DNA of 64,000 nucleotides from Escherichia coli (GCF_003790525.1 NZ_CP033635.1), one strand, 5' to 3'. Numbered from the stretch's first letter, positions 28,817 through 30,021 are shown. Program-made: numbers and translations. Notes: generated by a model not told the origin, from the sequence alone.

Positions 28817-29032
28817 TTAGTTAGAGTTAATTAGCTTATCAATCTCTGCAAGAGATAAAGCTGTCACCTCTGCAACGTCTTCCCGAGACATTCCTTTACT
28901 CAGAAGACGCTGGGCCAGTCTTACCTTCTGGAGTCCCTCTTTATATCCCTTCTGAAATCCCTTCTGAAATCCCTTCTCTTCAAACCACTGCGCCAACGTC
29001 TGCCAGGTTTCTCTCCGTGTCTTTATTTCCAT
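28817..29032 (-). CDS. Stand-alone small ORF (71 aa) homologous to the C-terminal tail domain of RpnC/YadD
   Basis: MEIKTRRETWQTLAQWFEEKGFQKGFQKGYKEG...LSKGMSREDVAEVTALSLAEIDKLINSN aligns with the RpnC tail (TLAQWFEEKG...LSKGMSREDVAEMANLPLAEVDKLIS); AAGGGA Shine-Dalgarno 5 nt before ATG. Confidence 0.55.
   Translation of the reverse strand: MEIKTRRETWQTLAQWFEEKGFQKGFQKGYKEGLQKVRLAQRLLSKGMSREDVAEVTALSLAEIDKLINSN
28947..28982 (-). repeat. In-frame 12-nt tandem repeat (cccttctgaaat x2 plus a partial unit) inside the orphan tail ORF
   Basis: Direct reading; encodes the QKGF-QKGF-QKGY repeat. Confidence 0.8.
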
Positions 29033-29100
29033 ATGTTCCCTTAATTATCTGGTCAGTTAACAATAACAATTATCTGGCTATAACTGATAATGCAGATAAC

Positions 29101-30021
29101 TTAGCTAATCAGCTTATCAACCTCAGCAAGAGGTAAATTTGCCATCTCTGCAACGTCTTCCCGAGACATCCCTTTACTCAGAAAACGCAGGGCGAATTCC
29201 TGTCTTACTTCCTGTCTAACCTCTTGTATTACCTCCTGTCTTACCTCCTGCCTTTCCTCCTGTCTTCCCTTCTCTTCAAACCACTGCGCCAGCGTCATCA
29301 TAGACTCCCCTCCCGTTTCCCTGTCTCTCAGCACACCATAAAACAAATCCGCTTGTTCAGTATGACCGCGTTGCAGCATATAGTTTTGCATGGCAACTAA
29401 CTGACTTCCGCTAGTGTACCCTTCGTCTATCAGCGTGACCAGTTGCTCCAGCAATAACATTAAGTCGCGTTGGCGAATATGTTTTTGCAGCAGTTCGAGA
29501 ATCGCAATCCGCCGATGTTGCATGATTTCGTCATCCGGTGTGATAGTGATATCCACCAGCGGGAAAGGACTGTTATAGACGCGTCGCGCCAGCTCCGGCG
29601 AGTAAAACATATCAAACCAGCACATTGAGAGTGGATAAGGCGTGGCCTCGCCCTGATAAAACAAAATCGGCACCACCAGCGGCAGCTTATCGTGATCTGC
29701 CTCCAGATGCCGGTGCATGGCAGCAATAGAATAACGCATCATGCGAAAGGCCATTTTTTTGTCCGGCTTGCTTTGGTGTTCAATTACAACATGTAGATAG
29801 CCCGTATTACCCTGCATTTGCACGGAATAGAGCACGTCAGTGCTGTGCCCTTTCAGGCTTTCTTCAATAAAACTCCCCGACTCAAGATGCAGCGTGTCGA
29901 GGTCACACAGTTCGCGTAGTTCCGCTGGCAAATGGATATCCAGAAAGTCACGAGCCGTTTCCGCATGCATTAAAAATTGTTTAAACACCGCATCATGCGG
30001 TGTGGTACTCGGTGCATCCAT
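29101..30021 (-). CDS. rpnC: Recombination-promoting nuclease RpnC (YhgA-like, PD-(D/E)xK) with repeat-containing tail
   Basis: 306-aa ORF MDAPSTTPHDAVFKQFLMHAETARDFLDIHLP... of the Rpn/YhgA family; K-12 locus name yadD. Confidence 0.85.
   Translation of the reverse strand: MDAPSTTPHDAVFKQFLMHAETARDFLDIHLPAELRELCDLDTLHLESGSFIEESLKGHSTDVLYSVQMQGNTGYLHVVIEHQSKPDKKMAFRMMRYSIAAMHRHLEADHDKLPLVVPILFYQGEATPYPLSMCWFDMFYSPELARRVYNSPFPLVDITITPDDEIMQHRRIAILELLQKHIRQRDLMLLLEQLVTLIDEGYTSGSQLVAMQNYMLQRGHTEQADLFYGVLRDRETGGESMMTLAQWFEEKGRQEERQEVRQEVIQEVRQEVRQEFALRFLSKGMSREDVAEMANLPLAEVDKLIS
29199..29270 (-). repeat. Six imperfect in-frame 12-nt tandem repeats in the rpnC tail
   Basis: cctgtcttactt / cctgtctaacct / cttgtattacct / cctgtcttacct / cctgcctttcct / cctgtcttccct, encoding RQEERQEVRQEVIQEVRQEVRQE. 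Confidence 0.8.

Follow-up and report, generated by a model that had tools for sequence, protein, structure and literature searches.

Variable four-residue repeat arrays in the RpnC tail and in a downstream rpnC_Ss gene at the panC-panD locus of Escherichia coli SMS-3-5

We analyzed two arrays of in-frame 12-nt repeats located between panC and panD in a stretch of Escherichia coli DNA (the window, 64,000 nucleotides in full), and we are highly confident, though not certain, that the repeats, four amino acids per unit, belong to the RpnC toxin-antitoxin module. One array is in the tail of rpnC. The other is in a 71-aa gene directly downstream that, judged from its sequence, arose by partial tandem duplication of the RpnC tail and is an allele of rpnC_Ss. 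The variable repeats, like the placement of rpnC_Ss downstream of rpnC, are a known feature, which the finding confirms; since Zhong et al. 2023 (PNAS 120:e2307382120, PMC10400941) describes the feature, we add an allele and no new concept. The segment at 28740-30100 of the window was 100% identical to Escherichia coli SMS-3-5 (NC_010498.1), in which rpnC is annotated. The features of the locus, with the basis of each in brackets, are as follows.

27078-27872, plus strand: panB (local gene order)
27884-28735, plus strand: panC (local gene order)
28817-29032, minus strand: stand-alone second tail gene, 71 aa, the rpnC_Ss of Zhong et al. (ORF)
28916..28982, minus strand: array of the stand-alone gene, 18 aa (Tandem Repeats Finder and reading frame)
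28975..28995, minus strand: conserved box tctcttcaaaccactgcgcca, copy in the stand-alone gene, a 21-mer (tail alignment)
29101-30021, minus strand: rpnC (Rpn_L form), 306 aa, recombination-promoting nuclease / toxin (ORF, PF04754, TIGR01784)
29101..29301, minus strand: putative internal RpnC_S frame, RpnC residues 241-306, 66 aa, beginning MMTLAQWFEEKG (read from the sequence)
29194..29270, minus strand: rpnC dodecamer array, six 12-nt units (Tandem Repeats Finder and unit-by-unit listing)
29271..29291, minus strand: conserved box tctcttcaaaccactgcgcca, encoding LAQWFEEK, at the 5' edge of the rpnC array, a 21-mer (invariant in the tail alignment)
29401..30003, minus strand: N-terminal nuclease domain of RpnC, residues 7-207 (PF04754 match, coordinates computed from the ORF)
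30295-30675, plus strand: panD (local gene order)

The Rpn-family feature of an N-terminal PD-(D/E)XK-type nuclease domain was present in RpnC: residues 7-207 matched Pfam PF04754 Transposase_31 (YhgA-like) with an E-value of 2.8e-87 in the Pfam scan, and the protein scored 279.7 bits against NCBIfam TIGR01784 (Rpn family), for which the cutoff is 52.1. Neither RpnC nor the 71-aa protein matched a PADLOC model, an absence that is uninformative because the 2023 library appears to be without Rpn models. The PDB sequence search with RpnC returned a chance match to TrpR alone (E 0.76); it missed the structure of RpnA_S, presumably on account of the shortness and divergence of the tails. A scan of 28650-30300 for promoters and terminators gave neither a promoter-like site on the minus strand nor any terminator-like site.

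The internal frame of rpnC opens with ATG ATG at 29301..29296, and a GGAGGGG sequence (29313..29307) is located 5 nt upstream. The start context GGESMMTLAQWFEEKG is the same in the window and in K-12, and the RpnC_S stretch ETGGESMMTLAQWFEEKG is identical in K-12 RpnC; judging from the sequence, RpnC_S is probably expressed in SMS-3-5. The array is shared by the RpnC_L and RpnC_S frames and begins at RpnC_S residue 13 (R253), within the 8-20 residues past the S-form methionine that are typical of the family.

The published work on K-12 gives these arrays a likely role. All rpn genes of K-12 were reported to make Rpn_S from an internal start, RpnC_S was detected by ribosome profiling and tagging, and Rpn_S blocks the toxic Rpn_L nuclease (PMC10400941). 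The crystal structure of RpnA_S is a dimer of three-helix bundles pairing via the long first helix, and the four-aa repeats of helix 1 (called 'dodecamer' repeats) are variable within species and determine the specificity of L-S pairing (PMC10400941). Addition of one KGIE unit to one RpnC partner alone abolished neutralization, which was restored when the unit was added to both (PMC10400941). The toxicity of the L form (DNA damage), the neutralization by the S form and the antiphage activity come from experiments on RpnA, RpnB, RpnC and RpnP2 (PMC10400941). The same report describes an rpnC_Ss gene that some E. coli carry downstream of rpnC and that can be lost by deletion or by fusion to the rpn N-terminal region, and shows that RpnE_Ss (YpaA) is expressed in K-12 (PMC10400941).

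Applied to the window, rpnC encodes the full-length PD-(D/E)XK-type nuclease RpnC_L, and the start at M241 would yield RpnC_S, which would bind and inhibit it. The array would be present in both proteins because it belongs to the tail, in its long first helix, and each unit would lengthen that helix by four residues. According to the RpnC experiments, only an S form with an equal number of units would neutralize a given L form (PMC10400941); copy number would therefore serve as a pairing-specificity code. Expression of the S form, its antitoxin activity and the same-length rule are taken from the literature and would hold for the alleles in the window by analogy; the rule itself is based on K-12 RpnC plus one added unit, and the units here are of the RQEV type while those of K-12 are of the IEKG/IQQG type. 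The function of the downstream copy is one that we infer.

Tandem Repeats Finder called the rpnC array at 29198-29270 (period 12, 6.1 copies, 81% matches, score 97) and the array of the small gene at 28945-28977 (period 12, 2.8 copies, 100% matches, score 66), with a second call at 28924-28977 (period 24) for the latter. These calls agree with an earlier note on this DNA, which had placed two in-frame 12-nt arrays at 28947-28982 and 29199-29270. Its count of six imperfect units in rpnC stands, but the in-frame phase of the array is 29194-29265 rather than 29199-29270. The units are RQEE RQEV RQEV IQEV RQEV RQEF, in the context ...LAQWFEEKG RQEE RQEV RQEV IQEV RQEV RQEF ALRFLSKGMSREDVAE..., where ALRF follows the array. 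For the small ORF, the note had described two perfect units and a partial one; this is right as far as it goes, except that in frame the units encode KGFQ and that the degenerate part of the array reaches 28916. The small-gene array comprises two perfect 12-nt units and degenerate ones (28916-28969), in the context ...LAQWFEEKG FQKG FQKG YKEG LQKV RL AQRLLSKGMSREDVAE..., where AQRL follows. At 18 aa it is no multiple of four, and it is out of the 4-aa register because of a 2-aa deletion (VRL vs VRQEF). The claim that the same sequence flanks both arrays was borne out by the 21-mer tctcttcaaaccactgcgcca, found at 28975-28995 and 29271-29291.

The arrays are among four loci with a Tandem Repeats Finder score of at least 50 in the whole 64-kb window, and they lie about 250 bp apart. 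We exclude a chance origin of the arrays because only four such loci were found in 64 kb and two of them adjoin within about 250 bp. We also rejected an assembly artefact, as both arrays keep the frame of conserved ORFs, are identical across several independent assemblies, and have variants that differ by exact multiples of the unit. Other repeats were noted elsewhere in the window. A 303-nt tandem repeat (50042-50904, 2.8 copies, 79% matches) and a 33-nt Ala/Pro-rich repeat (49980-50060) are both in a 630-aa minus-strand ORF (49033-50925) with three consecutive lipoyl-type domains, which make it aceF-like, the pyruvate dehydrogenase E2 component; upstream lies an aceE-like ORF of 887 aa, and the domain triplication is ordinary. 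An 18-nt tandem repeat (11882-11929, 2.7 copies) encodes, in frame, an acidic stretch near the N-terminus of an 849-aa PBP1b-like ORF (9475-12024, minus strand).

Comparison with K-12 RpnC_L/RpnC_S (YadD) revealed the same panC-panD locus, nuclease domain, internal start context and array position. K-12 RpnC has four units (IEKG IQQG RQEV SQEF) and is 300 aa long, in agreement with the figure in the earlier note, whereas the SMS-3-5 protein has six RQEV-type units and a C-terminus 2 aa shorter; the 306 aa found here are accounted for by two extra units (8 aa) and the loss of 2 aa at the C-terminus. The published rpnC_Ss and rpnE_Ss (ypaA) share with the 71-aa gene the downstream position on the same strand, the homology to the tail, an array of their own and a presence in some strains only. 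There is no categorical difference between the 71-aa ORF and rpnC_Ss; the particulars of the ORF are its 18-aa array, off the 4-aa register and unequal in length to the 24-aa array of rpnC. A further likeness is to the TAEL repeats of the EcoR124I and EcoR124II HsdS proteins (discussed in PMC10400941), which determine the spacing of the DNA sequence recognized by a type I restriction enzyme, but those proteins are unrelated and, from the description, the repeats here concern toxin-antitoxin protein pairing instead.

We examined the variation of the rpnC array between strains with a query covering 29140-29500 (361 nt), which matched 5,424 of the 5,426 complete E. coli genomes. Sixty rows were sampled evenly down the ranking; 51 gave usable spans, and of the others one was a partial match and eight had been merged in error with the copy in the small gene. 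The segment had seven lengths among the 51 usable rows, all of them multiples of 12 nt apart.

313 nt, 2 units: 2 rows
325 nt, 3 units: 5 rows
337 nt, 4 units: 37 rows, including every K-12 derivative and O157:H7 isolate in the sample
361 nt, 6 units: 3 rows, including SMS-3-5
373 nt, 7 units: 1 row
385 nt, 8 units: 2 rows
397 nt, 9 units: 1 row

An allele with five units was found in locus L020, and the rpnC arrays ranged from 8 to 36 aa in the loci that we fetched. In the same loci the array of the small gene was 6, 12, 14, 16, 18 or 24 aa long; its length differences were multiples of 3 nt (-6, -12, -18), with the ORF intact. Protein homologues of the small gene were 57-77 aa long in steps consistent with 4-aa units, and shorter and intermediate arrays also occurred. 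The proposal that both tails carry a module of variable copy number is upheld by these data (2-9 units in rpnC, 6-24 aa in the small gene across strains). An identical repeat number in all strains, the outcome that would have spoken against the proposal, is contradicted by the comparison, and the expectation that a change of units keeps the frame agrees with every rpnC length difference being a multiple of 12 nt.

Locus L002 is identical to the window, and over 4.2 kb L004 and L005 match it as well, save for a single indel of 1 nt. The indel is in rpnC of L005 (GCA_040530845.1), at L002 position 1273 (gene at approximately 1012-1932 of the locus), and no rpnC is called in that record; it is either a frameshifted toxin with the intact small gene kept, or an assembly error. 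We read 27 contigs with the SMS-3-5 allele of the small gene, 24 of them with mostly the same neighbor proteins, and the rpnC lengths across these contigs were 306 and 310 aa only. The arrays look stable within clones and appear to change fast on the timescale of lineages, not by phase variation. We read the term 'hypervariable', as used in the earlier note, on the lineage scale because clones share one length and the units are long, few and imperfect.

Unit-by-unit listing of the rpnC arrays revealed that added units are exact DNA copies of a neighboring unit: AGACAGGAGGTA is present twice in L003 and L006, AGACAGGAAGTA twice in L011, ACACAGGAAGTA twice in L013 (whose array otherwise matches that of L010), AGACAAGAGGTA three times in L025 and ATTGAGAAGGGA four times in L026. 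A single 12-nt unit is all that separates the loci L010 and L011 over 4,228 bp, which show no SNP, with a slight risk of an assembly error in L011 because it is a metagenome scaffold. In the small gene of L019, the 6-aa allele corresponds to the 18-aa allele from which 36 nt have been removed between two CAGAAGG repeats. The exact-copy signature fits slippage or unequal exchange between adjacent units, and slippage is presumably the mechanism. The arrays would gain or lose whole units by replication slippage or by unequal exchange between adjacent near-identical 12-mers, and the frame would always be kept because whole 12-nt units change.

Recombination between the two tail copies, as read from the sequences, also occurs, and recombination at the LAQWFEEKG box could swap or fuse tails. 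The fused tails P0023, P0015, P0024 and P0028 have the N-terminal context of RpnC with a downstream-type tail, and the mosaic tail P0031 has the ends of the downstream gene with a K-12-type array. Such tails are what would be expected if the length diversity arose mainly from exchange of whole-tail alleles between strains or adjacent copies and not from local slippage, as are the distinct families of units (IEKG/MEKG, RQEV and FQKG types) and the flanks of many length variants, which differ by dozens of SNPs (127 between L002 and L003). We nevertheless consider exchange a rather unlikely main source, as the added units within each family exactly copy a neighbor, the 4.2-kb background of L010 and L011 is the same but for one unit, and exchange alone makes no new unit numbers. 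Both processes clearly occur.

The 71-aa gene is on the same strand as rpnC and directly downstream, separated by a 68-nt spacer. Its product is 56% identical to RpnC residues 235-306 (E 6e-20), and the two tails are 81% identical at the nucleotide level, the similarity extending about 20 nt beyond the stop codons. The gene has its own ATG, with AAGGGA 6 nt upstream. Within the spacer (29033-29100), the coding strand has two copies of the sequence CCAGATAATT with 17 nt between them, and this duplicated element could be a candidate regulatory site for the downstream gene. Precomputed annotation assigns PF27070 HTH_Rpn_C, marked weak, to the 71-aa protein and its homologues; PF27070 was not matched by either protein in our scan of the Pfam library, in which the 71-aa protein was without a significant match. 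The C-terminal part of TIGR01784 aligned to the 71-aa protein with an E-value of 5e-11, below the cutoff. The naming of the gene in RefSeq is inconsistent (hypothetical protein, transposase, or RpnC/YadD family protein). In L026 (NZ_OZ546918.1) and L028 (NZ_CP019359.1), PGAP records the gene as an 'incomplete' transposase or a hypothetical pseudogene, yet the full MEIKTRRET... ORF is present.

The AF2 model of the 71-aa protein, made from an alignment of 43 sequences, has a mean pLDDT of 71.9 and predicts helices at residues 6-19, 22-45, 50-57 and 61-69. The array residues 22-39 are predicted to be in the long helix 22-45 (local pLDDT approximately 55-62 over residues 11-30). The Foldseek search of the model against the PDB returned nothing below an E-value of 1.4; every one of the weak matches was to an HTH protein, no more than a suggestive result.

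We asked if the 71-aa ORF is a decaying, functionless remnant of a duplication, with an array under no constraint. Judged by coverage of 80% or more of gene plus spacer, the gene is present in 1,555 of the 5,426 complete E. coli genomes, and it is absent from K-12; its lack in about 71% of the genomes would be in keeping with decay, as would the 'incomplete' or pseudogene labels from PGAP in some records, the loss of the 4-aa register by the 18-aa array, and the close allele pairs with pN/pS near or above 1, although these have very few differences. We find a remnant distinctly unlikely. The ORF, the ATG and the AAGGGA sequence were intact in each of the 27 loci read, and the length variants were in frame. 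In the more divergent comparisons pN/pS was 0.22-0.49, and the pooled value outside the array was approximately 0.49 (from small counts and non-independent pairs). Escherichia marmotae and further lineages of the genus have also kept the gene, and the analogous RpnE_Ss (YpaA) is expressed in K-12 (PMC10400941). The intact ORF, the pN/pS values and the presence in other Escherichia lineages argue for a functional small protein, probably under moderate constraint.

The rpnC arrays resemble the contingency loci of Haemophilus, Neisseria and Campylobacter in being coding tandem repeats whose number would be changed by slippage. Contingency loci, however, have units of 1-7 nt in long perfect tracts that turn the frame on or off at high frequency, whereas the RpnC arrays have 12-nt units that are few, imperfect, always in frame and stable within clonal lineages. 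We found no switching of frame or promoter spacing of the contingency type: the differences were in frame and the ORFs were intact. Two observations, the pair of perfect 12-nt units in the small gene and the single-unit difference between L010 and L011 over 4.2 kb, would suit a classical contingency locus, with high-frequency slippage within a clone and phase-like switching of Rpn specificity, but we regard this as very improbable given the few 12-nt units (81% matching in rpnC), the uniform 337 nt of the sampled K-12 derivatives and O157:H7 isolates, the 306 and 310 aa alone among the SMS-3-5-allele contigs, and the near identity of L002, L004 and L005. Because L010 and L011 differ by one unit only, unit changes can outpace point substitutions; because the changes stay in frame, they would not make an on/off switch.

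With the arrays read as repeats of the RpnC toxin-antitoxin module, the relation between the two neighboring arrays bears on what the downstream copy may do. Among the fetched loci with both genes, the rpnC and small-gene arrays were equal in length (24/24 aa) in L010, L012, L014 and L015 only. The mismatched pairs (rpnC/small gene, in aa) were 24/18 in SMS-3-5, 28/18, 28/14, 28/6, 8/16, 24/12, 36/12, 32/18, 28/16, 20/24 and 28/24, in a sample that is small and non-random. Since the lengths are mismatched and the published rule calls for the same length, in many of the loci the resident RpnC_L would escape neutralization by the downstream protein. We suggest, tentatively and with more doubt than conviction, that the downstream rpnC_Ss is not a spare antitoxin for its neighbor. 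It is possible that it is a stored alternative tail cassette that could be installed by recombination at LAQWFEEKG, and fused tails are indeed observed; it is also possible that it gives immunity to RpnC_L variants whose arrays have other lengths, or interferes with them. Our literature search on these repeats retrieved Zhong et al. 2023 and its commentary only, and a length mismatch between neighboring arrays is not in the description given in the parts of Zhong et al. 2023 (PMC10400941) consulted here.

The addition made here is the allele itself, with six RQEV-type units in rpnC and an 18-aa downstream array in SMS-3-5. The arrays are biologically meaningful: they would govern the pairing of antitoxin tails with nuclease toxins in a candidate antiphage system, and they diversify quickly. 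The locus is well suited to work on two subjects that the discussion of Zhong et al. 2023 (PMC10400941) also raises, namely how the dodecamers are gained and lost, and how the downstream copy acts when its array and that of its neighbor are unequal.
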